This document shows, one piece after another, positions 15,401 through 44,093 of a stretch of DNA of 64,000 bases. Positions within the stretch are counted from its first letter, which is position 1. Each line of letters starts with the position of its first letter. A program made the position numbers and the translations under genes. The notes beneath the pieces were generated by a model. The model was given only the letters and a program-made list of their open reading frames with translations, did not search any database and was not told where the DNA came from. This DNA comes from Sterolibacterium sp. (GTDB taxonomy: Bacteria > Pseudomonadota > Gammaproteobacteria > Burkholderiales > Rhodocyclaceae): the NCBI GenBank assembly GCA_023258955.1, contig JAHFRE010000003.1:1952-65951 (forward strand), written 5' to 3'.

Positions 15401-15402
15401 AT

Positions 15403-22733: not shown

Positions 22734-24077
22734 ATGAGTAAGAAACTCCGCGAGCTGCAAGCCCGCAAGTCGGCATTGGTATCGGACAAGGCCGAATCCC
22801 TGAAGCAAGCGAGCGTGCTGCTGGACGCCGCCGCCGCAGAAAACCGTGACCTGTCGACCGACGAGCAAGCTGCGTTCGACAAGTGCCGTCTCGAGGCCAG
22901 CGGCCGCACCAACGAAATCGAGCGCATTCAGGCCCAGATTGATGTCGAGCAAGAACTCATTGCCGCGCAAGCGCAGATCGGCGTGCAGGAGGCCATCGGC
23001 ATCATCATCACCGAGAACGTCGAGTCCGATCCCAAGCGGGGCTTCAAGTCCGTGGGCGAATTCATGCAGGCCGTCTATCGCGCCGAAAAGTTCGGTCAGA
23101 CCCCGGATCCACGTCTCCTGATCGGTGCCGCTGCGCCCTCAACCTACAGCAACGAAGGTGCTGGCCAAGATGGCGGCTTCTTCGTGCCGCCGGAGTTCTC
23201 GAAGGACATCTTCACACTCTCCCTGGGCGAAGACTCCTTGCTGCCGCTCACCGACGAAGTCGAGATCAACGGCAACAGCATGGCCTTCCCCAAGGATGAG
23301 ACCACGCCCTGGGGGACCAACGGCATCCGGGCCTTCTGGCAGGGAGAGGCGGCCACGGCCGTCTCCACCAAGCTCGCCCTGGGTCTTGCCACGCTTCGCC
23401 TCAAGAAACTCATGGCGCTGGTGCCCACAACCGATGAACTCCTCGAAGACGCCAATGCCCTGGCGAGCTACCTCCCGGGCAAGATCGCCGACTCGATCCG
23501 CTGGAAGACCAACGAGGCCATCCTCTTTGGTGCCGGCGCCGGCGTCCCCATCGGCTGCATCTCCAGTCCGGCAATCGTCACTGTCGCCAAGGAATCCGGC
23601 CAGTCCACGGCAACGCTCTTGCCGGCCAACCTCGCCAAGATGGTCTCGCGCCTGCCTGCCGGGTCCTACAACAAGGCGGTGTGGATCATCAACAACGATG
23701 TCCTGCCCGCGCTCTTTACCCTCACCCTTGGCAACTACCCGATCTACCTGCCCTGCGGGTGCATGACCGGTAGTGGCGGCGGCATCCAAGGCAATCCCTA
23801 CGGGATCCTGCTCGGTCGCCCGATCGTGGTCTCCCAGCATGCAGCAAGCTTCTCCAGCCAAGGCGACGTGATCCTGGCCGACCTCTCCTACTACCAGACC
23901 ATCACCAAGGCAGGTGGGATGCAGACAGCCACGTCCATGCACCTCTACTTCGACGCGGACCTCACGGCATTTCGCACCACCTTCCGCATGGACGGCCAAC
24001 CGAAGATCGTCGCCCCCATCAACCCGGCCAAGGGTAGCAGCACCCTCTCACCCTTCATCCAACTCGGCTCCCGCTAA
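22734..24077 (+). CDS. Major capsid protein, HK97 family, with N-terminal coiled-coil delta/scaffold region
   Basis: GGFFVPPEFSKDIF...FPKDETTPW...LVPTTDELLEDA matches the HK97 MCP pattern. The N-terminal ~100 aa are coiled-coil. Confidence 0.9.
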   Translation: MSKKLRELQARKSALVSDKAESLKQASVLLDAAAAENRDLSTDEQAAFDKCRLEASGRTNEIERIQAQIDVEQELIAAQAQIGVQEAIGIIITENVESDPKRGFKSVGEFMQAVYRAEKFGQTPDPRLLIGAAAPSTYSNEGAGQDGGFFVPPEFSKDIFTLSLGEDSLLPLTDEVEINGNSMAFPKDETTPWGTNGIRAFWQGEAATAVSTKLALGLATLRLKKLMALVPTTDELLEDANALASYLPGKIADSIRWKTNEAILFGAGAGVPIGCISSPAIVTVAKESGQSTATLLPANLAKMVSRLPAGSYNKAVWIINNDVLPALFTLTLGNYPIYLPCGCMTGSGGGIQGNPYGILLGRPIVVSQHAASFSSQGDVILADLSYYQTITKAGGMQTATSMHLYFDADLTAFRTTFRMDGQPKIVAPINPAKGSSTLSPFIQLGSR

Positions 24078-24663: not shown

Positions 24664-24894
24664 ATGACCAAGGCTTTGATGTACTCGCAGACCTGGTTCG
24701 ACTGCGATGCGGGCGGCACGAGCTTCGCCAAGTACCAGGCGGGCCAGACCTATCCGCTCCACGAGGATGCAGAGCGCCACGTCGCACTTGGCATCGCCGA
24801 GGTCATTGATGTTCGCGCGGCCGAGAAACCTGCCGCGGAAAAGGCCGACCGCGCGCAGGGCAAAGCCGCTGCCGAGTCGACTGCTACCCCCTAG
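24664..24894 (+). CDS. Hypothetical small virion-module protein
   Basis: ATG at 24664 with GGAG upstream. Confidence 0.5.
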   Translation: MTKALMYSQTWFDCDAGGTSFAKYQAGQTYPLHEDAERHVALGIAEVIDVRAAEKPAAEKADRAQGKAAAESTATP

Positions 24895-24904
24895 GAGAAA
24901 CCAG

Positions 24905-25489
24905 ATGCAGACTCATAATGGAATCGCCGCCGGCAACGCGGCGACCGACAGCGCTATTGCCTCGCAGAGCAGCGTTGTCGAGAAGGCCGGCGTCATCGGC
25001 GTCTACAGCGTTCAGTGCGTTGGCCCCGACGGCCAGGTGAAGTGGGAAGACACCGCCGACAACATCGTTACCAACGTTGGCAAGAACCTGGCGTTGGACA
25101 CCTTCCTCGCCGGCTCCGCCTATACCGCCGCCGTCTATATGGGCTTGGCCAATGGCTCAGCCTCAAGCTGCACGGTGACGGACACAATGGCCAGCAAGAC
25201 GACGTGGCTGGAAGTGGGTGCTACCAATGCGCCAACCTACACCAGTCCGCGCAAGACCCCGAGCTGGTCGAGTGCCTCAGCAGGATCCAAAGCCACAAGC
25301 GCCGCTGTCTCGTTTGCAATCACCTCGAGCGGCACGGTCGGCGGGTGCTTCCTGGTCTTTGGCTCAGGCGCGGTGACGACCATTGATAACACGTCGGGCG
25401 TCCTGTATTCCTGCGGCGCCTTTACCGGTGGCAGCAAGACGGTCTCCAATGGGGACACATTGAACGTCACGTACACCGCTAGCATGTAG
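24905..25489 (+). CDS. Hypothetical beta-rich virion-module protein
   Basis: ATG at 24905. Gly/Ser/Thr/Ala-rich beta-type composition. No family recognised. Confidence 0.6.
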   Translation: MQTHNGIAAGNAATDSAIASQSSVVEKAGVIGVYSVQCVGPDGQVKWEDTADNIVTNVGKNLALDTFLAGSAYTAAVYMGLANGSASSCTVTDTMASKTTWLEVGATNAPTYTSPRKTPSWSSASAGSKATSAAVSFAITSSGTVGGCFLVFGSGAVTTIDNTSGVLYSCGAFTGGSKTVSNGDTLNVTYTASM

Positions 25490-26945: not shown

Positions 26946-29900
26946 ATGGGGCTCCTTCTTGCGCGTGAGGGAGGGCTATCGAGCGCGAACATCCATTTCA
27001 TCGGCAGCGTCGAGTCAACCAATGCTTACGATGCGTTAACCGCAAGTGGCGCCTACGGCGTCGCCGCCACAGAAGCCGTCTATCCGGCAGTCGGCCAGCT
27101 AAATATCTACGCCGCCATGGTGGCGGCAAGCGGAGGCTACGTTGCGAGTAGCGGTCCGTACGGGCAGTCGCAGACCTTCCTAGCGAACGTCACCGGGCAG
27201 ATTCAGTCAATCGCTCTGCGCGGCTATCGAGACACCTCAGCCGCCGGTGTGCCGGCGCAACTTGGGCGCATTGCCCTGTTCTCGCTGACGGCCAATTCAG
27301 TGGCGGGGCTTCCGCAGACTCAGCTTGCCGCCATCACCTTCAACCTGATGACGCTCAGCACAACGCCGGGGCTGATCACCTTTGACTTTAGCCAGGTATC
27401 CGGTGCAACGGTGACGGCAGGCACATGGTACGCAGCGGTCTGGTGTCATGGCAGCGATTGGGGGAGTAACAACAGCAATCAGACGATGGGGTATTTCGAT
27501 GCCTCTGGCAACGTTTCTCCGAGCATTTCCACCAGCGGTTACACCGCGGCTGCGTCCTATCCGACCGGATGGGCCGCTGACACCTGGTCATACGACATCG
27601 AGGTTGTGGTTACCGGGTCGACGCCAGGTGCGGTAGATGCCGAGGCTGGAACGTTCTCAACGACTGTTGCTATGACCGAATCAGCGACAGCGGCCGATAG
27701 TCCGGTGGGCAGTTTTTTGGATGGCGTATTCAGCTTTGAGTTAAGCACGAATCCAACGTGGGATGGCAAAACCGTACTCCACAATCATCTGTCTACGTCA
27801 TCCGGCACGGTGTCCAATGACTCCGTGGCGATAGGTTGTCCCGGATCATTTGCCTATTCGGCAACACAGACGCTATTTGGACTTCAGAATAGCGCGTGGC
27901 AAAAATACACCGGCGGCTCGTGGAGTTTCGGAAATATCGGAATTTACACGGGCGCCCAATCGTTACTTCCGCAGACGTCATTGCCCATCTGGACGGTTGA
28001 GCTTTGGTATTTCCGAAACGCCGTCCAACCCACGGCTGGCGGCAATGATGCGTTCTATATCTACTGGGCTGGGTATGTCCCGCAGTACATTCGTTTCGAC
28101 GGGCTGAATGTGACTGTCAGGTTGGGCGCTAGCGCCCTGACGGTTACCGCGCCCGCGATTTCGATCAATGGTTGGCATCACATCGCGGTGCAAAATGACG
28201 GCACGACCATCATATTTTTCTTGGACGGTGTGCCGACGGTTGTGTCTTCCACGGATGGTAGTTTGAATCCCTTTGCTCTGAATACGTTTGATGTCTTTGG
28301 ACAGGACAACGATACCGGGGTCATCCATAACACCTACACCCAAGAGTTTCGCCTTTCAAACTGCGCAATCTACTCAAACAGCGGATTCACACCACCGACA
28401 GCCGCATTTGCTGATCCGATTTTATCGACGGATGTCACAGCCTCACCCATCACTGCGGCGATACCGGAAGCGGCGACGGCCACTGACAGCTTGCCCAAGC
28501 CCACAGGAATTACGGGCGTGGTGCAGACCGAGGCCACCGGCGGCACGCTCGAGGCCTCCGACGCATTCAACGGTGGGTACCAGGAAGAACACCTGACGCT
28601 GGTTGATAGCGTAACCAGTTTGGCAACAGCGAATGGCGCTCAGATGGAGCCGCTGGGCGACCCGGCAATCGCCCTGTACTGCAATTTTGAGGGCGGCGTG
28701 TGGGACCTGGCCGGGAACGGTTCTCAGGCCCTCGCCGGAGCGGCGACGATCCAGAACAGCATCGTAAAGTTTGGCAGCTACGCGCTTTCCTTCGGGAGCG
28801 CCGGCAATGCCTATCAATATACGCCGCTCGCGAACCACACAGAGACGATCCCTGTTTGGACGTATGAATGTTGGTATTACCCGGCCACCACATCGAGCTA
28901 CTGGTTCTACTTCTTCTATCCGGGTAATGGCATTGGTGGCTTTAACCTCGTATCCGCGACCAGTACCTATGGCACGGGGCTGTTCGTCGGGGTGGGGGTC
29001 GGCAGCTTCGCTCTGAATAATGCGGCGTGGAATCACCTCTGCTTGCAGTTCGACGGAACGACGCTCTGTTTTTTCGTGAACGGAACCGCGGTTACCCTGA
29101 CAAATAATACAGGTGCCGGCAAGTTCGCACTCAACCTGACACCTTGTGTGAATTGGGCTTGGTACACGGGGCCGTCTGGCAACGCCGCCTATCTTGATGA
29201 AGTCATTCTGACCCGCGCGGCCAAGTACAGCAACAGCGGGTTTACACCGCCAACGACGCCGTTGAGCTACTACGCCGCCAGTGACACGATGGCAGCACCG
29301 GTGCAAGGAGGCCTCACCGAAGCGGCGACGGGTGCCGATGTGGTTGCCACTCCGAATACTTCCTGGAACCCAACGCAGACCGAGGCGGCTGCTGCGGCAG
29401 ACCCGCAGGGTGCCATGGGTGGAGCCGAAAATCAGCTTGAAGCCGTAATGGGCGCTGACGCTGTTGCTGTGCTATCAACCTATGGCGTGGTGGATAGCGA
29501 ATCGATATCGCTGAGCGATGTTTCTGTCGGCGGCGTTCCTTTCGCAGTAACCGATACCGAAGCAACGACTGGGAGCGACAACGGGGCGGTGACCGCTTCC
29601 TCGCCGCATTGGATTCTCGAGCGCGGAACGCCGGACGCGAATACTTACCTCTTGTACCACTGTGCTGATGGTTCGAGTGCTTGCGGTGGTCCGGCCTTTT
29701 CTGGAACTTTCGGAAGCACTCATACGACACTGGGGTTTGCGACAAGCCTGACGCTGCCGGGATACGGGTTGATATATTTCCCTGTAACGCAAACGCTGCC
29801 AGCACCCGCCAATTTAGGGAAGATTTGGACGATAGAATTTTGGGTGTACACGACAGTCACTTTTAACGCGATTGTGATGGAGACGTCTACTGGGGCATCC

Positions 29901-32900
29901 GCGATGCTTCAGGTAACGTCCGGCGCGTCAAGTAGTATTTATACCGGCAGTTCGGGTAGCTATTTCACGGCCCCAGCGATTTCGACGAATGCTTGGCACC
30001 ATATTGCAGTCCAGTGCGATGGAACAAGCGCCTACTTCTTCTTAGACGGTTCTCCTACGTTGGTCGGGACGAATGTCGCGGCCCATGACTACGATTTGTC
30101 CGGTAGCGCTAGTGTATTTGGGTTGGTCAACGCGGACGGGATGAACACGATCTACGTCCAAGAGTTTCGCGTCTCGACTATTGCTCGCTACGCCAATAGC
30201 GGATTTACATCGCCCACAGTTCCATTCACTGTTGTGGGGGCGGCAGATGCGGGCGACGGCAAGCTGCCGACGTCCTGCTACCTCCCCGAGACGATGTCCA
30301 ACAATGCCCTTGCGTCGTCGTTGGCGTATGGCAATGGCGCGCCCTATGTCAAATACCTCGACAGCGCTTCGACCATCTATGGCTACGGGGTGACTTTCAT
30401 CGCCTCTGTTACGGCGCACCTTGGCCCGGTCACTGCTTACGTCTACAAGAACAATCATTCCAATCCACCGGCACAGCCGGGTACAGTTGAACTTTGGCAG
30501 TTGGCGAGCAATTCGATTTCGGCGATGCCAAGTACCAAATTGGCGTCGTTGACGTTCACCCAGGCATCCGCTCCAACATCCGGACTGTTTTGCGTAGATT
30601 TCACTGCGGTAAGTGGGGCGAATGTGACTGCTGGGGTCGGCTATGCGGTGGTCTTCTATCGCGGGTCAGATTGGACAGGGACCAACGATCAGTTTGCGTT
30701 GCTTGCCCAGTATTGGGGCATGCCGTCGCCAATGGCAGTGATCTGGAATCAGAATGGCGTAGCGTGGTACGCGGAAAGCAACTACTCGCCGGGAATACTT
30801 GTTGAATACGTGACGCCGCAAGATGCCGCCAACGGCATTGGTGGTTTGACGCTTGTCTCCATTACAGAGGCCTTGGCAGGCGTTGATGCGTCTGACTATA
30901 ACGCGGGAATGAACGCGAATGAGGCGGCGGCTTGTTCTGACAGCGCCTCGACGATAGTGACTTTCTATGGGGATCAGTCAAATTCCGTACATGGCCCGGT
31001 CCAACACGATTACACGCAGCTTATTTCCCGCGTTGGTTCATCTGACTACTGGATCGGTGGTGATGGTAGGTCGGGCCACACGTTCCAAGCAACTGCGTCA
31101 GGACAACTGGGTGCCGTGTTGTTTTGCATGCGTCAGGGATGGGGCCTTGTAACCCCAACCGCGACAGGAAGCATCGAGCTTTGGGTAACGGCCGGTGGCG
31201 GGCCAAGTGGCATTCCAACGACACAGATCGCATCCGTTCCTCTTCCTTGGTCGAGTCTAACAACGACTGACACATGGTATTCGTTCGACTTCACCATGGT
31301 TGGTGGCGCCGTGTTGTCGAGTGGGACTTGGTATTACATCTGCATTCACACTGGCTCCGATTGGGATGGTGCCAATAATCACCTTGTTGCCGTTCTGTGC
31401 AATACGGGCGGCATCGCTTCTTCTGCGACTACCGAGTACGGCGGCACGACCACTGCAACGGACGGTGGAAGTTGGAGCACCTACGGCAACGATTGGATGA
31501 TGATCGTCCAGATGGCCGGTAATGCTGACACGCTCATGGGTAATTGGGTAACAACCGTGTGGGGCGCTGAGGCTGCGACCGGGACTGACAGCCCTGCGGG
31601 CGGCTACACGGTGGCGATGCCAGAGGCGGCAACAAGCACAGATGGGCTGATATCAACCGCAATCGTCCCTATGGTTGGCTTAGAGCCTGCTACAGGTGCT
31701 GACGTACCAGTGGGTGCATTCGTTTCTCCGCAGGCAATAGCCGAAATAGGAACCGGAACCGACGTAAAGGACTCAACCTGTGTTACAGGCGCAACGGAAA
31801 TCGAATCCGCAGCGGGATCGGATGTGCCAGCGGCGACGGCGATCCTTGTCGGTACTGAATCTGAGGCTGCAAGTTCGGTTGATTCTCCTGTTTCTGTATT
31901 CGCGTTTGGCGTTGCTGACACAGAAACTGCAGCTGGTGGAGACGCACCCGTGGTGTCGGCGAGTTTTGCCAGCACACTCAGCGAATCGGGGGCGCTTGCA
32001 GATACAACAGACGGAGTAGGGCCAGAGAGTGCGACGATTACTGAACCGACTACAGCTGCTGATGCGAGCTCCACATCCGGTGTGCAGCCTGCCTCGATCC
32101 CCGAGGGTGCGACAGCCGCAGACGCCCCTGTTTCAACCTTCGTCACAAGCGCTGTGGAATCGGAGGCGGCAACCGGTGCTGACGCACCTGTTGGTGCAAA
32201 TGCTACTGCGGCAGCGGGATTGGAAGCCACAAGTGGTACGGATTTACCTATTGGCCAGAATGTCACGTCCTCTGCGGGAACAGAAGCGGCAAGTGCGTCG
32301 GACGCTGCAACTGGTGGGAATGTTGCCGTTGCGTCGATAGCAGAAAGCGCAACTGCTGCTGACGTTTTGGCTGCTGCTGCGCTATTTGTCGGTGCGCGAG
32401 CTGAGGCTGCATCTTCTGCCGAAGCGATTATTGCCGCAGCCGCGTTCGTGAGTGCCATGAGCGAGACGGTGAGTGGAGCAGATGCCGAAACTGTCACCGC
32501 TCTGCTGGTCAGTGCGATCACCGAAGCTGTAGCTGCTGGCGACGCCACGGACGGGGTCGGGCCGCAGGGCGTTACAGTCAGCGAGGTCGCTGCCGGATCT
32601 GATATACAGGTCGCGGCGGCTGGATTTATTGCGGCGGCGACCGCAGCCATGGCTGCCTTGGACGCAGCCGATGCCGCCAATGCGGGGGGCAATGCACCCC
32701 AATCTGAGATGGCCACAGCAATGGACGCCCCGGCTGCATTGGCGCTCTTTGTTGCGGCGCTGACGGAGGCGGCAACAGGAGCAGACGTCCCAACGGCAAC
32801 CGCCGTGTTCGTAGCAGACACCGCCGGCGCGGCGACGGCGACCGAGCTTGCAGGAGTAGCAGCAGCGTTCGTCGGCGCCGCTGTCGAAAATGCCTCAGGG

Positions 32901-33950
32901 GTGGATACGGTGTCCGCATTCTGGGTTGCCTATGCCTCGCTCACGGAGGCGAGTACCGTTGCCGATGCGATTGCCCTGATGGGCCTATTCGTGGGCGCGG
33001 TGGCAGAAGCTTCTATCGGTGCCGACATTGAGGGAGCCTGGACCGGTGTCACGCGGGCGATGGCGGAAGCCCTCACGGGAATTGATACAGGCTCCGCCAC
33101 GATGGCTGGCGCCGGCCAACAGTTGGAAGTGGGTGTCTCGAGCGATTTGCCGGCTGGCGTTGGCACCGTGCCCGTGCTGGAGACGGAGTCGGTGGCTGGC
33201 ACCGATGGCACTGCGGCCGTGTTTGCCTCGCCGCAAGCAATCGAAGAGGTGAGCGTGGCTAGCGATGGCAAGGCGGGGCAACTGGCAGCAGTGGGTGCGA
33301 GCAACGAATTGGCACTTGCTGCCGATGTCGGAGCCAGCACGATGGCCGCTGTTGCTTCTACCGGCGAACTGACTTCTGCTGTTGATGGTTCGGCGGGCGC
33401 CGTTGCCTTCACCCTCGTGATGGCGGAGTCGGCACTGGCAGGTGACGGTGGAACTGCGACGTTCTCCGCAGTGGCGGCAGCGCTTGAAGCGATTGCTGGC
33501 GTTGACTGGCCTGCGGCGGCGTTGAGCGCTGCAGCAGATTTGGTCGTCAGCGTGACCGCAGCGGATTGGTTGGGTGCCGCGACCGTGGCGAACGCCGAGG
33601 CGGCTGAAGCGGTTGTGGCTCTTGAGGAGACCGGCGGCGAGGCTGGCCAATGGGTGGGGATTTACGAGGTCGTGTCGGCGACTGAGTCCGGGATAGTGGA
33701 ACTGGCGCGCTTGGCATTCGGCCTGGAGGACGTCAGCACCACAGACTTGGTCCTGGCGAACGTGAATTTTCATGTTGGCACGGTCGAGTACGTCGTGGCA
33801 GTCGATCTCTGGACCGGCGTTCTGTGGGTCTTTGACCACCGCTTCGTCGTCTCCGGCGCCGGTCGATCGTTCTCAGTTCAGCGTGGCGGCATTTCGCCGG
33901 TCGCGATGGGGCCAAGGCATTTTGAGGTGACGGAGGCCGGCACGACATGA
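26946..33950 (+). CDS. Giant (2334 aa) multi-domain virion-module protein: 3 LamG/concanavalin-like domains, 3 copies of a second ~150-aa domain, long 20-residue-periodic repeat region
   Basis: Uninterrupted 7005-nt ORF. Three copies of W(T)xExW.Y...W(H/N)H(I/L)..Q.DGT...FF(L/V)(D/N)G...(Y/F)...(F/V)....A.Y(S/A)NSGFT.PT at about aa 285-490, 575-775 and 890-1095. Three copies of a QxF.A...G.....(I/V)(A/E)L....(P).....(L/I)A......GA.(V/L)..G..Y......G(S)DW domain at about aa 60-215, 1140-1290 and 1375-1525. Confidence 0.85.
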   Translation: MGLLLAREGGLSSANIHFIGSVESTNAYDALTASGAYGVAATEAVYPAVGQLNIYAAMVAASGGYVASSGPYGQSQTFLANVTGQIQSIALRGYRDTSAAGVPAQLGRIALFSLTANSVAGLPQTQLAAITFNLMTLSTTPGLITFDFSQVSGATVTAGTWYAAVWCHGSDWGSNNSNQTMGYFDASGNVSPSISTSGYTAAASYPTGWAADTWSYDIEVVVTGSTPGAVDAEAGTFSTTVAMTESATAADSPVGSFLDGVFSFELSTNPTWDGKTVLHNHLSTSSGTVSNDSVAIGCPGSFAYSATQTLFGLQNSAWQKYTGGSWSFGNIGIYTGAQSLLPQTSLPIWTVELWYFRNAVQPTAGGNDAFYIYWAGYVPQYIRFDGLNVTVRLGASALTVTAPAISINGWHHIAVQNDGTTIIFFLDGVPTVVSSTDGSLNPFALNTFDVFGQDNDTGVIHNTYTQEFRLSNCAIYSNSGFTPPTAAFADPILSTDVTASPITAAIPEAATATDSLPKPTGITGVVQTEATGGTLEASDAFNGGYQEEHLTLVDSVTSLATANGAQMEPLGDPAIALYCNFEGGVWDLAGNGSQALAGAATIQNSIVKFGSYALSFGSAGNAYQYTPLANHTETIPVWTYECWYYPATTSSYWFYFFYPGNGIGGFNLVSATSTYGTGLFVGVGVGSFALNNAAWNHLCLQFDGTTLCFFVNGTAVTLTNNTGAGKFALNLTPCVNWAWYTGPSGNAAYLDEVILTRAAKYSNSGFTPPTTPLSYYAASDTMAAPVQGGLTEAATGADVVATPNTSWNPTQTEAAAAADPQGAMGGAENQLEAVMGADAVAVLSTYGVVDSESISLSDVSVGGVPFAVTDTEATTGSDNGAVTASSPHWILERGTPDANTYLLYHCADGSSACGGPAFSGTFGSTHTTLGFATSLTLPGYGLIYFPVTQTLPAPANLGKIWTIEFWVYTTVTFNAIVMETSTGASAMLQVTSGASSSIYTGSSGSYFTAPAISTNAWHHIAVQCDGTSAYFFLDGSPTLVGTNVAAHDYDLSGSASVFGLVNADGMNTIYVQEFRVSTIARYANSGFTSPTVPFTVVGAADAGDGKLPTSCYLPETMSNNALASSLAYGNGAPYVKYLDSASTIYGYGVTFIASVTAHLGPVTAYVYKNNHSNPPAQPGTVELWQLASNSISAMPSTKLASLTFTQASAPTSGLFCVDFTAVSGANVTAGVGYAVVFYRGSDWTGTNDQFALLAQYWGMPSPMAVIWNQNGVAWYAESNYSPGILVEYVTPQDAANGIGGLTLVSITEALAGVDASDYNAGMNANEAAACSDSASTIVTFYGDQSNSVHGPVQHDYTQLISRVGSSDYWIGGDGRSGHTFQATASGQLGAVLFCMRQGWGLVTPTATGSIELWVTAGGGPSGIPTTQIASVPLPWSSLTTTDTWYSFDFTMVGGAVLSSGTWYYICIHTGSDWDGANNHLVAVLCNTGGIASSATTEYGGTTTATDGGSWSTYGNDWMMIVQMAGNADTLMGNWVTTVWGAEAATGTDSPAGGYTVAMPEAATSTDGLISTAIVPMVGLEPATGADVPVGAFVSPQAIAEIGTGTDVKDSTCVTGATEIESAAGSDVPAATAILVGTESEAASSVDSPVSVFAFGVADTETAAGGDAPVVSASFASTLSESGALADTTDGVGPESATITEPTTAADASSTSGVQPASIPEGATAADAPVSTFVTSAVESEAATGADAPVGANATAAAGLEATSGTDLPIGQNVTSSAGTEAASASDAATGGNVAVASIAESATAADVLAAAALFVGARAEAASSAEAIIAAAAFVSAMSETVSGADAETVTALLVSAITEAVAAGDATDGVGPQGVTVSEVAAGSDIQVAAAGFIAAATAAMAALDAADAANAGGNAPQSEMATAMDAPAALALFVAALTEAATGADVPTATAVFVADTAGAATATELAGVAAAFVGAAVENASGVDTVSAFWVAYASLTEASTVADAIALMGLFVGAVAEASIGADIEGAWTGVTRAMAEALTGIDTGSATMAGAGQQLEVGVSSDLPAGVGTVPVLETESVAGTDGTAAVFASPQAIEEVSVASDGKAGQLAAVGASNELALAADVGASTMAAVASTGELTSAVDGSAGAVAFTLVMAESALAGDGGTATFSAVAAALEAIAGVDWPAAALSAAADLVVSVTAADWLGAATVANAEAAEAVVALEETGGEAGQWVGIYEVVSATESGIVELARLAFGLEDVSTTDLVLANVNFHVGTVEYVVAVDLWTGVLWVFDHRFVVSGAGRSFSVQRGGISPVAMGPRHFEVTEAGTT
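31569..33845 (+). repeat. About 38 consecutive degenerate 60-nt (20-aa) coding repeats, consensus E-x5-D-x13
   Basis: Glu falls at residues 1560, 1580, ... 1880, then 1921, 1941 ... 2281, with Asp (rarely Glu) six residues later. There is only one 1-residue indel. The DNA copies are diverged. Confidence 0.85.
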
Positions 33951-33987
33951 ACGATGGAATCGTTGCCAGTGCTTGTGAGAGGTCCCG

Positions 33988-34364: not shown

Positions 34365-35213
34365 ATGCCCCTCCAGCTTCTGACCCCGCCAGCGGCTGAG
34401 CCGTTGCATCTTAACGATGCGATCGCCCACATCAAGCAAGACGCCGGGATCGATGACGCCCATATCCTGGCCACCATCGTTGCGGCGCGGAAGTCCGTCG
34501 AGAACCGGACCTGGCGGCAGCTGGTGGCTGCGCGCTACCGGCAGGTCTTGGATAGCTTTCCGGGGATGGGGGAGTTTGGTACCCGTTGGGGCTACCCCTT
34601 CATGCTACCGAGCAATGCCATCCTCCTGGATCGGGCGCCGGTGTTGCATGTCGAGTCGATCCAGTACCTGGCCATGGATGGCAGCACGCAAACGATGCCA
34701 GCGGCCGACTATACGGTGGACTATGCCTGCGAGCCGTGCCGGATCACCCCGCTCTTCGGCAAGATCTGGCCGATTCCGCTGCCGCAGATCGGAGCGGCGT
34801 GGGTAACGTTCAGCACTGGATTCGCTTCGCCGATTGTGGCGGATCCGGTCGCCGATACGGTGTCAGTCAAGATCTGGCGGCCGCTCGCCGTGGGCGACGT
34901 GGTCCAGTTCTCGAACAGCGGGGGCATTCCGCCCGCACCACTGCAGATCAACACCGACTACACCCTGGTTTCTGTCCTGGCGGACGGCGTGTTTCAGGTC
35001 GCGTTGGCGGCTGGCGCCGCGGCTATTGATATTACTGACCGCGGCATTGGCCAGACTTTCATCGGCGAGGTGCCTGGCGACATTCTCGCCTGGATACGGA
35101 TGCGCGTGGGCTCCTTGGATGTCTTCCGGGAAGAGGCTATTGCTATGAGCCGCGGCAAGATTGAGAACCTGCCCTTCGTCGATTCGCTCTTTGATAGCTA
35201 CACGACCTGGTGA
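34365..35213 (+). CDS. Head-tail connector (gp6-like) with C-terminal extension
   Basis: EPLHLNDAIAHIKQDAGIDDAHILATIVAARKSVENRTWRQL is the gp6-like N-terminal signature. Confidence 0.75.
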   Translation: MPLQLLTPPAAEPLHLNDAIAHIKQDAGIDDAHILATIVAARKSVENRTWRQLVAARYRQVLDSFPGMGEFGTRWGYPFMLPSNAILLDRAPVLHVESIQYLAMDGSTQTMPAADYTVDYACEPCRITPLFGKIWPIPLPQIGAAWVTFSTGFASPIVADPVADTVSVKIWRPLAVGDVVQFSNSGGIPPAPLQINTDYTLVSVLADGVFQVALAAGAAAIDITDRGIGQTFIGEVPGDILAWIRMRVGSLDVFREEAIAMSRGKIENLPFVDSLFDSYTTW

Positions 35214-36498: not shown

Positions 36499-37710
36499 AT
36501 GGTCATGTCATCTGGCGTATTCAAACAAGTTACCTACAAGGCCGAGACGGTCTTTGGCACAGCGCCCGGTGCGTCGGGCGCGCAAATTATCCGGCGCGTG
36601 GAATCGGTCCTGGACCTTTCCAAAGATACCTTCAGCTCGAACGAAATCCGAACCGACATGCAGGTGGCCGACTTTCGCCATGGCACGCGGCGCGTCAAAG
36701 GCTCGCTCAAGGGGGAACTTTCACCCAAGACCTATGCTGACTTTATCGCCGCGGTGGTACGGCGCGACTTTGCCTCGGTGAGCCCTATTGCGAGTGCGTC
36801 GATCACGATCGCCGGCACCGGCCCCACCTGGACCGTGACCCGGGCGGCAGGGTCATTTCTGACCGATGGTGTCAAGGTCGGCGACGTGATTCGGTTGAGT
36901 GTGGGGGTCTTCAATGCGGCGAATCTCAACAAGAACTTGATGGTTACTGCGCTGACCGCCACCGTCGCCACGGTGATCGTCCTGAATGGGACCGCACTCA
37001 TTGCCGAAGGCCCGATTGCCGCGTCGACCGTGACGGTGGTGGGCAAGAAGACCTACATGCCGACCACGGGCCACACGGCAAAGTCGTTTTCCTACGAGCA
37101 TTTCAATGCCGACACGAGTCTCTCCGAGCTCTTTACCGGCGTCAAGATCGACACGATGGCCATTGCCCTGCCACCCACCGGCATGGGCACCATCGACTTT
37201 GGGTTAATTGGGCAGAACATCACCACGGGCTCATCTGCCTACTACACAGGCTCCACATCAGCGTCAGCAACGGGTGTGGTCTCCGCCGTCAACGGCGTGT
37301 TGCTTATCAGCGGTGTGCCAGTGGCGAACTGCACGGGCCTCACGATCAACGTCGCCGGCGCCCTGTCAGGAGATCCGGTCGTAGGACAGAATTTCGTGCC
37401 TTACGTGTTCCCCGGACGGATGACGGTGACTGGACAATTCACGGCCTACTTTGATTCGGGCACCTTCCGCGACAACTTTATCAATGAGGACGTGATCGGC
37501 ATCTCCGTGGCGCTCACGAGCAGCAATGTCGCCGCCGCCGATTTCATTGCCATCAGCCTGCCGTCCTTGAAACTGAGTAGCTGCACCAAGACGGATACGG
37601 AGAAGGGAATCATCGCGACCTATGCCTTCACGGCACTACTCAATACCGCCGGTGGCGCTGGCACGTCCAGTGAGCAAACCACCGTCGTTGTGCAGGACTC
37701 CGCAGCTTAA
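36499..37710 (+). CDS. Major tail (tube) protein, 403 aa
   Basis: Lies between the tail terminator and the chaperone pair. Strong RBS. Beta-rich sequence. Confidence 0.65.
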   Translation: MVMSSGVFKQVTYKAETVFGTAPGASGAQIIRRVESVLDLSKDTFSSNEIRTDMQVADFRHGTRRVKGSLKGELSPKTYADFIAAVVRRDFASVSPIASASITIAGTGPTWTVTRAAGSFLTDGVKVGDVIRLSVGVFNAANLNKNLMVTALTATVATVIVLNGTALIAEGPIAASTVTVVGKKTYMPTTGHTAKSFSYEHFNADTSLSELFTGVKIDTMAIALPPTGMGTIDFGLIGQNITTGSSAYYTGSTSASATGVVSAVNGVLLISGVPVANCTGLTINVAGALSGDPVVGQNFVPYVFPGRMTVTGQFTAYFDSGTFRDNFINEDVIGISVALTSSNVAAADFIAISLPSLKLSSCTKTDTEKGIIATYAFTALLNTAGGAGTSSEQTTVVVQDSAA

Positions 37711-38170: not shown

Positions 38171-38508
38171 TCCGCCACGCCGAGCAGCAACTTGGGCTGA
38201 GCCGCCGGGATAAGGAGGGCACCACCTTTCGCCAACACCTGGAGGCGGTGGCCCAGGCAACCGGCGAGACGCCGCCAGAGCTGATTCCGCTCCCCATCCC
38301 GGCAGGCTGTGGCGCGGTCTGGTCGGTATTCCTGCAGTTGAACGCGCGCCGTGGCAACAATGGCATGGCGGTGTCGCCCATTGCGCTCGCGGACATCGTG
38401 GCCTGGCAAACGCTCATGGGTGTGGACCTCACGCCCTGGGAAATCGAGACCCTCTTGCAACTGGACTGCGTCGCCCTCGCGGCGCCAACTTCACTGAGTG
38501 ATTCATGA
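37736..38508 (+). CDS. Tail assembly chaperone, -1 frameshift fusion product (GT-like)
   Basis: The -1 frame from the heptamer continues ...KFYQGLRDGLIRHAEQQ... to the TGA at 38506..38508, which overlaps the tape measure ATG. Confidence 0.6.
38140..38146 (+). promoter_or_regulatory. -1 programmed ribosomal frameshift heptamer A AAT TTT
   Basis: Zero frame reads GA A AAT TTT ATC, which is the X XXY YYZ form. The -1 frame is open from here to 38508. Confidence 0.65.
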
Positions 38509-41500
38509 GCGATATCACGATTGGCAACCTGGTGGTTCAGATGTCGGCCAACGTCGCCCGTTTGTCCTCGGACATGCGGGAAGCGAAGAATGCGGTCACC
38601 GAAGCCACCAGCCAGATCAGCGACGCGGCGGAAAGCGCCATGCACGCCTTGGAGGCGCTAGGCGTTGGGCTATCCATCGCCGAATTTGCCGAGTTCGTGC
38701 GCCACACGAGAGAAGCGGCCGAACATTTGCTCAATCTGCAGAAGGCCACGGGCATTGCTGTCGAGGCCCTCTCCGGTCTGAGTCTTCTTGCCAAGCAGAA
38801 CGGCACAGATATCGATTCGCTCGCGCGCGCCGTCGAAAAGCTCTCCGTCAACATGGGCAAGACCCCGGAGGACTTCAGGGCGCTCGGCGTCTCAGCCAAG
38901 GATCCGCTGGAGGCCTTCAAGCAGCTAGCTGACGTCTTCAATCTGATCCCGGACATCCAGACGAGAAACGCCGTGGCCATGAAGGCGCTCGGCAAATCCT
39001 GGGCCGAGGTGGCACCGGTGATGTCGCTCGGTTCTGAGGAGATCGGCAAGACCGTGGAGAAGGGACTGGCGCTCTCTCACATGAATACGGAGCTCGCCAA
39101 GTCCTCGAAAGAATTCAACGACAAGTGGGTGGAGTTGACCGGCACTGGCGGCTTTGCCAACCAGATGCTCGCAGCACTCCTGCCCACCATGAACGGCGTG
39201 GTCGACGACTTCTTGGCCCTGCGCGACAGTGCGGGCGGAACCGGCACGGCCTTCGAGAAATTTGGCGCGTCGGTGGCCTCCGTCGTTTCAACCACCAAGG
39301 ACGTGGTGGTCTGGCTCACCAACCACAAGGAAGCGGTGGAGGCCGTGGCCGGTGCCTACGGCTCCTGGAAGATCGCGACCTGGCTTGGGCCACTTATCAC
39401 CGGCTACGCCCAGGCGGCTGTCGCCACCTACGAAAAGGTGACCGCCGACATGGCGCTAAAGGCGGCGACCTTGGCCAGCGCCGAAGCGAATGTCGCGGCG
39501 ACCGCTTCCACTGCGGCACTCACCGCCACCCGGGTGGCTGAACTGCGCGCGGCCGTCCTGGCCACCGAGGGAGAGGTGGCGCTGGAAATTGCCACGAACG
39601 GCTTGATTCCTGCCCAAGCCCGGGCCACTGCCGCAGAACTTGCCCATGTCACCGCGCTTGAAGCGCTGGTCGTCGCGCAAGAAGGTGCATCGGTCACCGC
39701 GGCGGCAGCCGGCGGGGCGGTGACGCTCCTGGGTGGCCCGGTCGGCGTGATCATCACGCTCTTGGGTCTTGCCGCCACCGCTTGGTTTGCCTTTGGAGAT
39801 TCTGGCAAAACGGCGCTCGACAAGCTGGTTCCTTCAGCGGACGACGCCCAGGAGCGGCTCGACAAGATCAACCTGACGCTGAAGTACGGCACCGGTGAGC
39901 GGGCGCAAATCGAAGCGCAGCTCGCGGCGATCTCCGCCAAGAAGGTCGAGCTCTACCAGCAGGAGGACTATTTCGTCAAAGGCCAGATCGAGGAACTCGA
40001 CAAGACCCGGGCCACACTCCTGCTGCAGCGTGATGCCTTGGATGCGATCGATGCCAAGCAAAAGGCCGCTGCGGGCTCGGCGGGTACACTGACCCAGGCG
40101 CAGAAGGATGCGGCGCAAGCGGCAGCAGACTTCCTGGCCAAGGGTACTCAGGCGGCGGATGACCAAGTTGCCAAGTACAACGCGTTGGTCGATCGGGTCA
40201 ATGCCTACGCTGCGCAGATCTCCCTGGCGGTGGATCAGAACAAGGCCGTGACCGAAGGAGAAAAGCTCAACCTCGCCGTCAAAGACATGCTTGGAAAGTC
40301 TATCGTCGGTGTCGACGCCGGCATGAAGGCATTGCTGAAGTCAGCCGCCGCTTACATCCTGCTGAAGGAATCGGAAAGGAAGGCCGAGGAAGATGCCACG
40401 AAGGCCCTCAAGGATCGCGCCACCGTTCTGGCGGCGGTGGACAAGGTGACCCAGGAAGTATCGAAGTCCACGGAAGCCTTTGCTCTCAAGCAAAAGGAAT
40501 CCGTCGATGCGCTAAAGACTGGGATTGCGGAAATCGACATGAGCCCGCAAGAGCGGGCCGTGACGCAAGCGATGGCGGTGATCGACAAGGCACTGGAACA
40601 GGAAATCGAAAAGGTCTCCGAACTCATGGGATCGAAAGGGTGGGGCGGCACCGAGGAGTTCGATCGAGTGATCGGCGCGCTGCAGCAATCGGCAGAAAAG
40701 CAGAAAGCCATCGTCACCGATCTGATCAACTTCAAGATCGCGAAGGAGCGTGACTGGGTGACGGGCACGAACCAGGCGTTCATGGACTACGTCAACAACG
40801 CGACGAACGCCGCTGTGCAAGCGAAGTCCTTCTGGAATGTGGCGCTGACCGGCATGGAGGATCTTCTGACCAAGTTCTTCACGACTGGGAAACTCGGATT
40901 CTCCGACTTCATCAAAGTCATCGAAGCGCAGCTCGCCAAGATGGTCGCCCAGCAGATCGTCGTGTCCATTGTCGGGGAAGTCACCGGGGGTGCTGTCGCA
41001 GGGGCTGCCGCGGGTGCAGCCGGCTCAGCCGGCGGCGCTGCGGCGGGAGGGTTCATGTCGTCTGCTGCCGGGAGCATGCTTGCCGCGAATGCCGGGACGA
41101 TTGGGGCGATGCAAGGCGGTGTGGGTTCCGCTTTTGCAGACTACCTGGCGACCAACGGCTTCATTTCCTCGGCAGGATCTTACATGGCGGCCGAGGTCGT
41201 TCCGGTCCTTGGCGAGGTGGTATTGGCAATCTCAGCCCTGAACGCCCTTTTTGGCAGCCACGGCACGCCGACGTCCTCGACCGGCAACAACACCACCAAT
41301 TTCGATACGTCGGGGAATATCCAAAACGCGACATCGCAATTCGGTGGGACCAGCGCCACGGCGGATGCGATGGTCCAAATGATGGAGACGACGTACACGA
41401 CGTTCATGACCTCGATCGGAGCCACCGCGGCGGCAGCGACGTTCGGTTACGGCGGGAATACCGGCAAAGACGGAAAGGTTCCGAATTTCGATATTACGGG

Positions 41501-44093
41501 TGCTGCCGGATCATCGCTCTATCGCGCTGGTGAAACCGCGATTGGTTCGGACAACACCGCGGTCCAGCTTGCCGCCTCCCGGGCGGTGCTCGCCGCGATC
41601 GAGGGCAGCGATCTGCCGAGCTACCTGTCTAAGGTGTTCGATGGGCTGACCCCATCGACGGCGACCCTTGCGCAGATCAATGCGGCGGAGTCCTTTGCAA
41701 CGACACTGGCGACGGTGAAGGCTGGGCTGACGGAAACGCGAACCGCAGCGCAGCAGTATGCCGACGCGATCGCTACGCAGACAAAGGCGTTGGGCACCTC
41801 AGCGAGCACTTTTAAAACCGACTTCACCGCGGCGCTGAATGCCGGTCTGACCCCTGACCAGTTGACCAAATGGCAGACGCTCGGCAAGACACTTGCTGAC
41901 GCCGCGGCGAACGCAGCCGCTTTCACCGCGTCGATCCGCGGGATAGGCAACACCATCGACACCCTGACCGGGGGGACGTCCCACGGCGCTGCATACGCTG
42001 CCACCGATGCGGCAACTACCGACGCGGCCCTTTATACTGCGCTCGGGGTCCACGTTTCCGACTTGGTGACCATGACCGACGAGCAGATCGCGGTGATGGG
42101 CCGGGCTAAGGACGGCAATCTTACGCTGATGCAAAGCGCCCTGGATGCTGCGAATGCAAACAAACAGTACACCGACGCCCAGGCCCAGGCGCTCGCTGAC
42201 GAAGCCAAAGCCAAGGCTGCAGCGGAGGCCATCACTGCAAAGGCCACGAGCGACTATAACGTGGCGATGGCCACTGCGACGGGGGATACCGCGGGGCTCG
42301 CTGTTCTCAATAAGGCATTGCAGGATTCCGCCCATATCGCCGCTGGCTGGACCCAGGCGCAGGTCGATGCACTCGATGCGGCGCAAAGCGCGAGGGATCT
42401 TGCGGCGGCCAACCGGTCGGCGGCCGATGCCATCGCGCAGACCTCGGCGTCGATCGCCTCCTCCCTCGACTCGCTGAACGGAAACAATCAGGCTTCTCTG
42501 GCGCTGGCCAATCTGAACGTCACGACCGCAATGCAAGCCGTGACAACGGCGATGCCTTGGATTCAAAGTGCTGCGCAGTTGGCGACGATCACACCGGAGG
42601 ACGCCAGCCACTATTCTGCTGCCAATCAGGCAATAATCGCCCCCGCCCTAGCTGCGATCGCAGCACTTGCGCATGCGCAGGCTACGGCAAACCAACCCAC
42701 GTCGTCGGGGTACTCGCCTTCGCCAGGGGCTGCGCCTTTGACTGCCGATCAGACGGCCTACAACACCCTGGTCCAGCAACTGGGCGCGGCCAACGATTCG
42801 CTCCTGACGCATACGCAATTGCTGGCGCAACAGCGCGCAGGACTGAGTGTTGCGAACCAGGCCATCTTCGATCAGATCCAGCTCGTCACGAAGCAAAAAA
42901 CGGCGATGACAGCCCTACAGGCCGCCTACGACGCCGAGCATACGGCCCTCACGAACACGATCACCGGTATGGGGAACTTTGCGAAGAGTCTCACGGCGTT
43001 CAGGAATGGCATGCTCCTTGGCAATTTGTCTCCGCTCACGCCCGAGGAGAAATACGCCGAGGCCAAGACCCAGTACGAGGCAACGCTTGCGGCAGCCAAG
43101 GGCACCGGCCCGGATGCGGCCAAGGCGCAGGCGGATCTACAGAACTCCGCCACCGCCTTCCTGCAGGCCTCCCAGGTCGTCAATGCGTCGAGCCAGCGGT
43201 ATCAGGAGGACTTCGCCCACGTGCGCGATTCCACCGGCCTCATGGTCGATTGGGCCCAGCAGCAGGTTAATCTTGCCCAGGCGAGTCTTACCGCGCTCGA
43301 TCAGCAGGTCTCGGGGCTGGTCACGGTCAATGCTTCGGTGCTGAGTGTGGCTGATGCGATCAAGGCGCTGGCGGCCGCCATGAACGCCAATGGCCAGAAC
43401 GGGGGTGCCATGACCACCACGGGCAATACGGCGGCGATCACCTCACTCTACCAAAGCTTGTTGCACCGCGCGCCGGACGCCACTGGGCTTGCCAATTCGG
43501 TGGCTTGGATGTCCCACGGCGGCACGATTAATGATCTAGCGACAAACATCATGCAAAGCCCAGAGTATTTGATGCGCCAGCGGATCAAGGAGGCGCTGGG
43601 GGCGAATGCCGAGGTGATGGCCTACAACCCCAACTTCCTGACTGCTCCGACTGATGCGCAGCTTGGGGCAATCGATTGGTACACCCGAATCGCCTTAAGC
43701 CAAGGGTTTCAGGCGGCGGTGGAGCAGATTGGTAAGGATGCGCACGCTTATGCCACCGCGCATCCGATGGCCTCCCACGCCACGGGCCTGGATTATGTGC
43801 CCTACGACAACTACCAGGCCAAGTTGCACCAGGGAGAAATGGTGCTGACTCAGGGGCAGGCGACGGACTTCCGCCAGTTTGGTACGGCAGGCATGGGGTC
43901 ATTGGTTGCGGAGATCAAGGCATTGCGCGAGGAGGTCAGGACCTTGCGTGCCGAGCAGAAGGAGCAGACCGGCGCGGTCATTGCCAGCAACTATGATGCG
44001 AACGACCGGGCGGCAGTGAAGGTCGCCGCCGGCGCCACGGTGGCTGCCAAGACGGCGGCGTGGGCGCAGAAGACGAAGGCGGTCCTCAAATGA
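38505..44093 (+). CDS. Tail tape measure protein (1862 aa) with DUF4214-like segment
   Basis: Position, length, Ala/Gln-rich helical composition and Gly-rich hydrophobic stretches fit a tape measure. LYQSLLHRAPDATGLANSVAWMSHGGTINDLATNIMQSPEY (nt 43437..43571) resembles DUF4214. Confidence 0.9.
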   Translation: MSDITIGNLVVQMSANVARLSSDMREAKNAVTEATSQISDAAESAMHALEALGVGLSIAEFAEFVRHTREAAEHLLNLQKATGIAVEALSGLSLLAKQNGTDIDSLARAVEKLSVNMGKTPEDFRALGVSAKDPLEAFKQLADVFNLIPDIQTRNAVAMKALGKSWAEVAPVMSLGSEEIGKTVEKGLALSHMNTELAKSSKEFNDKWVELTGTGGFANQMLAALLPTMNGVVDDFLALRDSAGGTGTAFEKFGASVASVVSTTKDVVVWLTNHKEAVEAVAGAYGSWKIATWLGPLITGYAQAAVATYEKVTADMALKAATLASAEANVAATASTAALTATRVAELRAAVLATEGEVALEIATNGLIPAQARATAAELAHVTALEALVVAQEGASVTAAAAGGAVTLLGGPVGVIITLLGLAATAWFAFGDSGKTALDKLVPSADDAQERLDKINLTLKYGTGERAQIEAQLAAISAKKVELYQQEDYFVKGQIEELDKTRATLLLQRDALDAIDAKQKAAAGSAGTLTQAQKDAAQAAADFLAKGTQAADDQVAKYNALVDRVNAYAAQISLAVDQNKAVTEGEKLNLAVKDMLGKSIVGVDAGMKALLKSAAAYILLKESERKAEEDATKALKDRATVLAAVDKVTQEVSKSTEAFALKQKESVDALKTGIAEIDMSPQERAVTQAMAVIDKALEQEIEKVSELMGSKGWGGTEEFDRVIGALQQSAEKQKAIVTDLINFKIAKERDWVTGTNQAFMDYVNNATNAAVQAKSFWNVALTGMEDLLTKFFTTGKLGFSDFIKVIEAQLAKMVAQQIVVSIVGEVTGGAVAGAAAGAAGSAGGAAAGGFMSSAAGSMLAANAGTIGAMQGGVGSAFADYLATNGFISSAGSYMAAEVVPVLGEVVLAISALNALFGSHGTPTSSTGNNTTNFDTSGNIQNATSQFGGTSATADAMVQMMETTYTTFMTSIGATAAAATFGYGGNTGKDGKVPNFDITGAAGSSLYRAGETAIGSDNTAVQLAASRAVLAAIEGSDLPSYLSKVFDGLTPSTATLAQINAAESFATTLATVKAGLTETRTAAQQYADAIATQTKALGTSASTFKTDFTAALNAGLTPDQLTKWQTLGKTLADAAANAAAFTASIRGIGNTIDTLTGGTSHGAAYAATDAATTDAALYTALGVHVSDLVTMTDEQIAVMGRAKDGNLTLMQSALDAANANKQYTDAQAQALADEAKAKAAAEAITAKATSDYNVAMATATGDTAGLAVLNKALQDSAHIAAGWTQAQVDALDAAQSARDLAAANRSAADAIAQTSASIASSLDSLNGNNQASLALANLNVTTAMQAVTTAMPWIQSAAQLATITPEDASHYSAANQAIIAPALAAIAALAHAQATANQPTSSGYSPSPGAAPLTADQTAYNTLVQQLGAANDSLLTHTQLLAQQRAGLSVANQAIFDQIQLVTKQKTAMTALQAAYDAEHTALTNTITGMGNFAKSLTAFRNGMLLGNLSPLTPEEKYAEAKTQYEATLAAAKGTGPDAAKAQADLQNSATAFLQASQVVNASSQRYQEDFAHVRDSTGLMVDWAQQQVNLAQASLTALDQQVSGLVTVNASVLSVADAIKALAAAMNANGQNGGAMTTTGNTAAITSLYQSLLHRAPDATGLANSVAWMSHGGTINDLATNIMQSPEYLMRQRIKEALGANAEVMAYNPNFLTAPTDAQLGAIDWYTRIALSQGFQAAVEQIGKDAHAYATAHPMASHATGLDYVPYDNYQAKLHQGEMVLTQGQATDFRQFGTAGMGSLVAEIKALREEVRTLRAEQKEQTGAVIASNYDANDRAAVKVAAGATVAAKTAAWAQKTKAVLK

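Follow-up and report, generated by a model that had tools for sequence, protein, structure and literature searches.

What kind of structure is built by a protein that repeats an acidic 20-residue unit 38 times, and what would a phage use it for? The question is raised by a prophage of Sterolibacterium sp., analysed here as a stretch of 64,000 nucleotides of contig JAHFRE010000003.1 (assembly GCA_023258955.1) and referred to as the window. A giant open reading frame (ORF; 26946..33950, + strand) in this prophage encodes 2334 amino acids (aa), with a modular N-terminal part, a repeat array (31566..33845, + strand; aa 1541-2300) and a conserved C-terminal segment. The array is a member of a large, previously uncatalogued and widespread phage repeat family, and the window protein is one of the largest and most elaborate members of that family. 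The array is proposed to form the stiff, strongly acidic beta-type shaft of a virion-associated fibre that carries lectin-like domains and belongs to a temperate siphophage, a reading to which a probability of about one half is given.

Register and periodicity of the repeat array

The array consists of 38 units of 20 residues, in which position 0 is typically Glu and position 6 Asp. An earlier reading made from the letters alone (the sequence-only reading) had described about 38 back-to-back units in an E-x5-D register, and the counts agree with it. When the protein is written in rows of 20, Glu occupies position 20 in 34 of the 38 units, and the residue six further on is Asp in 32 units and Glu in 4, giving 36 of 38. 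The proposed register and the one-residue insertion between E1880 and E1921 stand, but the Glu series is not unbroken, being interrupted at aa 1900 (A), 1961 (G), 2201 (V) and 2301 (V). The sole one-residue slip lies at 32586..32708 (+ strand; aa 1881-1921), where two units extend over 41 residues and the unit ending at aa 1900 lacks its Glu. The array lies where it had been placed, although it begins one unit earlier, at E1542/D1548, after which an 18-residue unit follows.

Fourier analysis against 1000 composition-preserving shuffles bore out the claimed periodicity. The power at period 20 was 1.44 for Glu, with a shuffle mean of 0.06 and maximum of 0.42, and 1.42 for Asp, whose shuffles reached at most 0.63. 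At the codon level, a pattern encoding six E-x5-D units in a row gave 14 matches in the window, all within the giant ORF, and 0 matches in 100 dinucleotide shuffles.

The units are strongly diverged, as had been noted for the DNA copies. Pairs of array units are on average 23% identical as protein and 39% as DNA, the closest DNA pair reaching 63%; Tandem Repeats Finder reported no tandem repeat in the array, and no lag stood out when higher-order super-repeats were sought. The composition is of low complexity (A 26%, G 10%, T 10%, S 9%) and strongly acidic, with 94 Asp and Glu against 6 Lys and Arg in 760 residues, which puts the net charge at about -88. The residues V, I, L, F, M and W make up about 25%, a share unlike that of a disordered linker. 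The hydrophobic stretch that had been assigned to the later units is real, but limited to about 10 units at aa 1801-2021, where it takes the form x-F-V-x-A.

Antisense ORFs of 160-405 aa overlie the array on the - strand (31604-32821, 32930-33412 and 32985-33839) and are most likely frame artefacts of a GC-rich repeat rich in Ala, Gly and Val codons; the + strand frame is the only one conserved in the orthologue and the repeat family described below. GC skew reaches its window maximum of 0.138 at 32001-34000, coinciding with the G-starting codons (GCN, GGN, GTN, GAR, GAY) that dominate the repeat.

Orthologue and repeat family

A search with the giant protein returned only itself and one other protein, P0002 (1921 aa); the giant ORF is its own cluster, with P0002 as its one orthologue. 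The P0002 gene stands in the same order as in the window, namely terminase, portal, protease, capsid, seven small genes, giant gene, connectors and tube. All 38 units of the two arrays align with zero indels, at 51-88% identity along the array, and because the alignment contains no indel, P0002 shares the one-residue slip at aa 1881-1921. Identity between the two proteins depends on the position within the unit, with 84% at even and 65% at odd positions, in a comparison that is independent of the family profile.

Beyond this pair, a 40-position profile of window double units was searched against 1.84 billion representative proteins, yielding 159 matches at E<=1e-3 and 27 at E<=1e-10. The E-x5-D spacing is exactly 20 in nearly all of the 159; P0042 was rejected as a family member, being a false positive with an 11-residue period. 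The six-unit codon pattern occurs in at least 120 IMG/VR stretches, which are viral contigs. From 1339 units of other proteins the consensus E-[AST]-A-[TS]-A-[TA]-D-[TAS]-[VP]-S-A-x-[AL]-[VT]-[FL]-x-A-[AS]-[IVL]-[STA] was obtained, and its A-[VT]-[FL]-x-A-[AS]-[IVL] segment agrees with the hydrophobic stretch of the window array. A family hidden Markov model (HMM) built from 140 double units of other proteins, with no window sequence included, matches double units along the whole of aa 1541-2226, with scores of up to 34 bits at aa 1541-2077 and up to 2 bits at aa 2080-2226. Like the family, the window array has E-x5-D every 20 residues in runs of at least 5 units.

Compared among homologues, repeat number is the same in P0002 and ranges widely in the family. 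A typical member has 11 units (median over 255 related proteins; interquartile range 9-14, maximum 45), and 93% of the spacings between 15 and 25 residues are exactly 20. Together with the low DNA identity among units and the indel-free orthologue, this figure upholds the view that the 60-nucleotide phase has been held by selection and not by recent expansion. The window protein contains 43 E-x5-D motifs overall, the second-largest count among the 255.

Existing catalogues do not describe the unit. Pfam returned nothing in the array even at E<=10, and Pfam-A, PHROGs v4 and NCBIfam 20 hold no repeat model for any family member tested. Neither the array or giant protein nor a 160-position repeat profile matched PDB sequences, the latter at E<=1, and the C-terminal 794 aa, searched in viral and genome collections, gave no related locus.

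Short family members have three parts: a motif of some 25 residues at the N-terminus, then 5-30 units, and last a tail of aromatic repeats of about 11 residues. The N-terminal motif reads MFGxSAFxQAPFSSL... or MAEGGWGSGTWG...; its presence in the giant protein was considered and rejected, an HMM of 48 such N-termini scoring the N-terminus of the giant protein below many shuffles of that segment. The tail repeat, for example TQTANWQNIxN, is present in 2-8 copies (L002:8301-9146, L039:2488-3267, L065:1514-2716 and many other loci) and is likewise uncatalogued, Pfam giving only a weak sub-threshold W_rich_C match for one member.

Other long family members also have different N-terminal domains. 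Long arrays are found elsewhere too. A 1027-aa product truncated at its 5' end has at least 45 units, proteins of 1129 and 2369 aa have 39, and P0048 (2433 aa) has 21 in an unbroken run. Since such arrays come from L020 (IMGVR_UViG_3300037261_000033, 92 kb), L059, P0003 and P0048, giant versions arose in several phage lineages.

Unit pattern and structure prediction

The consensus alternates along its length. Even positions are conserved and small or hydrophobic apart from the acidic pair (E0, A2, A4, D6, V/P8, A10, A/L12, F/L14, A16, I/V/L18), and odd positions hold Ser, Thr or Ala. In the family profile, period 2 accounts for 59% of the power in hydrophobicity and 42% in information, against 17% and 6% at helical periods (3.3-4). 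This alternation, the even/odd identity difference in the orthologue, the indel-free array and the hydrophobic quarter of its residues point to a folded beta-type repeat.

Structure prediction with AlphaFold2 (AF2) gave a comparable picture. The model of aa 1719-1878 is all beta, with a predicted local distance difference test (pLDDT) score of 75.5 and a predicted template modelling (pTM) score of 0.67, and has about three short strands per unit, the ladders being continuous and broken only at the two residues that follow each Glu. The model of aa 1980-2139 shows the same all-beta pattern at a pLDDT of 60.8, and helix is absent from both runs. The single-chain prediction called for in the sequence-only reading is thus all-beta and not disordered, but at pLDDT values of only 75.5 and 60.8. 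These models are consistent with a solenoid and do not amount to proof of one.

Foldseek neighbours of the first model in the PDB were parallel beta-helices only (tapirin, LpxD/GlmU, CsgA, ice-binding protein and two-partner-secretion domains), all of them weak. Neighbours in BFVD were mainly uncharacterised proteins of uncultured tailed phages; of the BFVD matches listed, Roseobacter phage CRP-5 gp55 had the best template modelling (TM) score and on inspection proved not to belong to the family.

The same results bear on a fibre of alpha-helical hairpins or coiled-coil-like helices, comparable to the helix-turn-helix supercoil of the phi29 head fibre. Some middle units are rich in Ala and Leu and start with D-x-P in a manner resembling a helix N-cap, and the giant gene lies 3' of the capsid gene, as the head fibre gene does in phi29. 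With most of the periodic power at period 2, units rich in Gly, Thr, Val and Ser, and two AF2 runs without any helix, such a helical fibre is considered extremely improbable.

Domain architecture of the giant protein

The features described in this section all lie on the + strand. Pfam Laminin_G_3 (concanavalin A-like lectin/glucanase) scores 56.1 bits for the whole protein (cut-off 27.6), its three stretches being confined to the N-terminal part. LamG/concanavalin-like domain 1 (27990..28367, aa 349-474) gives a Laminin_G_3 E-value of 1e-5, just below the gathering score when the segment is scanned alone. LamG-like domain 2 (28743..29273, about aa 600-776, with approximate boundaries) contains the second Laminin_G_3 stretch and phrog_38322 at aa 685-776. 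LamG/concanavalin-like domain 3 (29634..30233, aa 897-1096) contains the best Laminin_G_3 stretch at aa 951-1048 and matches phrog_3545 over aa 897-1096. A second globular domain type is present in three copies at about 27081-27707, 30120-30815 and 30963-31580 (aa ~46-254, 1059-1290 and 1340-1545), with the motif ...VELWQL..NS...TF.F..VSGA.VTAG..Y.....GSDW; Pfam does not recognise it in the giant ORF, and it is inferred to be beta-sandwich-like.

The two domain types are divided by single repeat units or short unit runs. One or more isolated units lie at 27630..27713 (aa 229-256, including E245/D251; family HMM 16 bits, independent E-value 5e-7), and an isolated partial unit at 28452..28490 (aa 503-515, including E508/D514) has the E-x5-D motif and a weak family HMM match. 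A run of 4-5 units between LamG-type domains (29310..29600, aa 789-885), recognised by motif check and family HMM, includes Glu at 792, 813, 832, 852 and 872. The upstream units that had been listed from the letters are therefore confirmed, with Asp at +6, for Glu 245, 508, 792, 813, 832, 852 and 872, but not for E529.

The N-terminal 25 residues (26946..27020) are conserved with P0002 despite the different domains that follow, and the first E-x5-D (E23/D29) stands directly after them. The C-terminal segment (33606..33947, aa 2221-2334) comprises the last degenerate units and the tail and is the most conserved part of the protein, its final ~110 residues being 96-97% identical to P0002; the tail contains three R-x-F-x-V motifs at aa 2297-2330 (~33834-33935). 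By blastp, the N-terminal part is rearranged between the two proteins. P0002 has one LamG match and more copies of the second globular domain than the window protein, and the orthologues therefore differ by domain shuffling. A rearranged N-terminal part combined with a conserved shaft and two conserved termini is the pattern expected of a fibre with fast-evolving binding modules on a conserved scaffold.

Gene neighbourhood and partner protein

The giant ORF lies within a morphogenesis module, with the capsid gene upstream and adaptor-like, tube, tape measure and tail fibre genes downstream, all on the + strand. The major capsid protein gene (22734..24077) matches phrog_10 at E 8.6e-48, and the P0002 contig has a Phage_capsid match at the corresponding place. 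Downstream of the giant ORF, the head-tail adaptor-like gene (34365..35213) matches phrog_442 at E 8e-6. The tail tube gene (36499..37710; Pfam Phage_tube_2, 110.8 bits) marks the phage as a siphophage, and the tape measure protein gene (38505..44093) is supported by Tape_meas_lam_C at 64 bits and by tape-measure PHROGs; its 1862-aa product is very long and has DUF4214 near its C-terminus. A conventional tail fibre gene with a C-terminal intramolecular chaperone (45566..48532; Peptidase_S74, 57.8 bits, and tail fibre PHROGs) shows that the phage has a fibre other than the giant ORF product.

Further out, the left side of the window (1-17000) encodes an Mrr-type endonuclease, a helicase, a D5-type primase and a ParB-methylase fusion, with replication and modification genes at 6-17 kb. 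On the right side (52000-64000), a PRiA4_ORF3-like gene (53200-53928) and two host major facilitator superfamily (MFS) transporter genes (57178-60544) probably mark the prophage end. The window contains no tRNA genes.

Gene neighbourhoods were read in 106 viral loci, where the repeat genes mostly encode 200-500 aa. The usual order there is an SU10-type adaptor (PF24175), a 139-aa phrog_644 protein, a 192-aa phrog_8123 protein, the repeat protein, and a tail fibre, spike or virion structural gene. The genes directly 3' of the repeat gene share the N-terminal motif L.L.L..TG...GTWG.T.N....AIAG (for example L002:9159-12881 and L010:10073-11458), which is probably a common virion-attachment domain on diverse fibres; phrog_31104, of unknown function, is matched by 22 of 63 such downstream fibre or spike genes.

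A phrog_8123-type gene is located upstream of the repeat gene in 68 of the 106 loci, directly so in 39. The window has one as well (24905..25489, + strand), encoding a virion structural protein of 194 aa with E 5.7e-9 to phrog_8123 and E 8e-52 to the family HMM of the viral-locus neighbours. Its true start is M67 of ORF 24707-25489, which begins 66 codons too early with an Arg/Pro-rich lead-in. Searched against the PDB, the partner-family profile identified chain 26la_U ('Structural protein') at E 9e-19, which is 100% identical to ORF007 of podophage KPP25, a gene product encoded directly after the gene annotated 'head closure Hc3'. This homologue from a KPP25-type phage is a chain of a solved virion sub-assembly and is therefore a proven virion component in a relative. 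Chain 26la_U shares PDB entries with the 620-aa structural protein ORF005, with capsid (26de, 44ny) and portal plus ORF008 (26fb) in other entries, and from the chains that share entries the homologue would be placed in a tail or neck sub-assembly of the KPP25-type virion. No paper was found in the literature for PDB 26la/44nx or a Kochitakasuvirus structure. KPP25 and phage Rollin have the phrog_8123 gene and no E-x5-D protein.

This context also bears on whether the protein belongs to the virion at all. A prophage-encoded cell-surface adhesin or exclusion factor, that is, a moron within the late region, would be in keeping with bacterial adhesins that also hold LamG domains and long acidic repeats, and one family member gave weak sub-threshold NCBIfam matches to MSCRAMM adhesins. 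In two related phages, however, the giant gene has the orientation of the capsid and connector genes and stands between them, the family occurs on at least 120 viral contigs with a conserved adaptor-to-fibre order, and no signal peptide or anchor motif is evident at the N-terminus from the translation, which makes a non-virion role very improbable.

Proposed model and its weighing

In the proposed fibre, each 20-residue unit would form one rung of a beta-solenoid-type rod, and 38 rungs at about 4.8 Å each would give a length of about 18 nm. The even positions (A2, A4, x8, A10, A/L12, F/L14, A16, I/V/L18) would pack inward, and the odd positions, rich in Ser, Thr and Ala, would face the solvent. 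Glu0 and Asp6 would stack into two continuous acidic ladders that lock the register, perhaps through divalent cation binding or through capping of turns. The shaft would bear a variable set of lectin-like beta-sandwich domains, three LamG and three others, separated by single rungs, and these domains may bind host surface glycans during adsorption. Docking on the virion would probably occur through, or beside, the phrog_8123-type protein encoded upstream. The structural solenoid or fibre shaft suggested by the sequence-only reading thus becomes the leading model, backed by the phage structural module, the period-2 pattern, the composition and the all-beta AF2 models, although it remains an inferred one.

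In a more far-reaching version, divalent cations would run as an unbroken chain along the Glu0/Asp6 ladders, with one ion to each rung. The array would then represent a new fold class, a metal-zippered polyanionic phage fibre with Ca2+/Mg2+-dependent stiffness or assembly, common to hundreds of uncultivated phages, without a solved or catalogued relative, and docking through the phrog_8123-type protein. This version is regarded as speculative and unlikely.

Several points weigh against the beta-type shaft. The window's own units show no period-2 hydrophobicity peak (5% of power), the conservation profile alone having one. The multiple sequence alignment supplied to AF2 was a pseudo-alignment of 8-unit repeat windows from family members, fitted to the repeat, and the confidence was moderate to low, the five models spreading from 75 to 52 and from 61 to 40. 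AF2 is also known to over-predict beta-solenoids for repeats, giving confident but unrealistic models that include uncompensated internal Glu/Asp stacks (PMC11795689). The Foldseek matches in the PDB had E >= 0.06 and TM <= 0.38, and with matches this weak the fold is supported by no solved structure. Mutual information computed between neighbouring units mostly reflects lineage effects and does not separate one topology from another; it contains no antiparallel (anti-diagonal) signal, and its diagonal signal is confounded by the lineage-specific consensus. The searches tried in GenBank isolate phages brought up no family member: tblastn with the giant protein matched only LamG-like domains of Salmonella phages, and tblastn with a short family member gave no match, possibly owing to the low-complexity filter. 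Finally, the phrog_8123-type gene of the window lies four small ORFs upstream of the giant gene and is not adjacent to it.

Part of this evidence could also be read as favouring a flexible, disordered polyanionic spacer, an entropic bristle possibly O-glycosylated on Ser and Thr, in which periodic Glu and Asp would record descent from a duplicated unit and not a fold. Low-complexity composition with almost no basic residues, the lack of a database model or solved relative, the low confidence of the second AF2 model and the known spurious AF2 folding of such repeats (PMC11795689) are all in line with it. About a quarter of the residues are nevertheless V, I, L, F, M or W, and conservation follows period 2 with Ala, Phe, Leu and Ile positions maintained. 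Spacers of this kind do not keep their length as strictly as the exact-20 spacing across hundreds of diverged proteins and the indel-free orthologue require, and the spacer appears quite improbable.

A homotrimeric intertwined fibre, either a triple beta-helix or a triple beta-spiral, with Glu and Asp directed toward the trimer axis or the subunit interfaces, deserves more weight and is still rather doubtful. Phage fibres and spikes are typically trimers, as is well established (cf. PMC12143355, PMC4576200). The repeat genes adjoin tail fibre or spike genes, the period-2 pattern and strict unit length fit a trimer equally well, and the low TM scores to monomeric beta-helices leave room for one. 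Against this, no result speaks for a trimer specifically, the prediction having been made for a single chain, and the beta ladders are already satisfied in the monomer model. Known triple beta-helix repeats are also shorter, those of T4 gp5 consisting of 8-residue units.

Comparison with known repeat proteins

In its working, the array would most resemble Ca2+-bound or polar-ladder beta-solenoids and repeat-built phage fibre shafts. Region IV of the Marinomonas primoryensis ice-binding adhesin is built of coils of about 19 residues with one Ca2+ per coil, and RTX beta-rolls follow the motif GGxGxDxUx. The proposed shaft would share with Ca2+ beta-solenoids a short rung, of roughly 18-20 residues, an acidic residue that recurs in every rung to form a ladder, and the shape of a long rigid rod in a surface or adhesion protein, and ice-binding solenoids are among the weak Foldseek matches. 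The array differs in having no Gly-rich turn motif and no Pfam or NCBIfam match, HemolysinCabind included, which sets it apart from RTX/haemolysin-type beta-rolls; its unit combines an acidic pair, Glu and Asp at a distance of six residues, with an Ala-rich core, and metal binding is hypothetical.

The curli subunit CsgA, with repeats of 19-23 residues (S-x5-Q-x4-N-x5-Q), has a similar unit length and likewise conserves polar residues six apart, which in CsgA form ladders of a strand-turn-strand solenoid, and the CsgA fibril 8enq_A is among the Foldseek matches (E 0.32). Its ladders are formed by amides (Gln, Asn), unlike the carboxylates of the array, and it is a secreted amyloid subunit of five repeats without a sequence-family match, the curlin repeat giving no Pfam match to the array at E<=10. 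Parallel beta-helices such as hexapeptide LpxD/GlmU (18 residues per coil), tapirin and two-partner-secretion domains have triangular coils of about 18-22 residues and are the only structural neighbours of the AF2 model. The array differs from these enzymes and secretion domains in having neither a hexapeptide motif nor a family match. For the hexapeptide left-handed beta-helix ([LIV]-G-x4, Hexapep) in particular, there is no Pfam match and the AF2 resemblance is at E >= 0.14 and TM <= 0.17.

In pentapeptide-repeat proteins, four pentapeptides form a coil of 20 residues, and some of these proteins (MfpA, Qnr) are negatively charged rods. The length of 20 residues and the negative charge recur in the array, in which the conserved period is 2 and not 5, A(D/N)LXX is absent, and Pfam Pentapeptide gives no match at E<=10. 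Phage fibre and spike shafts (T4 gp5, tailspike beta-helices and the adenovirus-type triple beta-spiral) resemble the proposed fibre in combining, in a virion appendage, a repeat-built beta shaft with binding domains and, for the repeat genes, in having fibre or spike genes as neighbours. They differ in unit, that of the array being 20 residues with an E/D pair and absent from PHROGs, and in location, since the giant gene lies between the capsid and connector genes of the window siphophage and not at the tail tip.

Implications

If the beta-type shaft model is true, an abundant building block of phage appendages is wholly absent from Pfam-A, PHROGs v4, NCBIfam 20 and the sequences of the PDB. 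Hundreds of proteins now listed as 'hypothetical' in viral metagenomes would receive a name from a model of the unit, and the genes around them (phrog_644 type, phrog_8123 type and downstream fibres) would be recognised as a single adsorption module. Built on a strict 20-residue rung, with Ala packing in the core and carboxylates in two ladders, this simple repeat could constitute a cation-dependent rod, of interest for structural virology and for solenoid scaffold design. In the giant version, the lectin-like domains that break up the shaft are shuffled from one close relative to the next, which would be the signature expected of host-range evolution.

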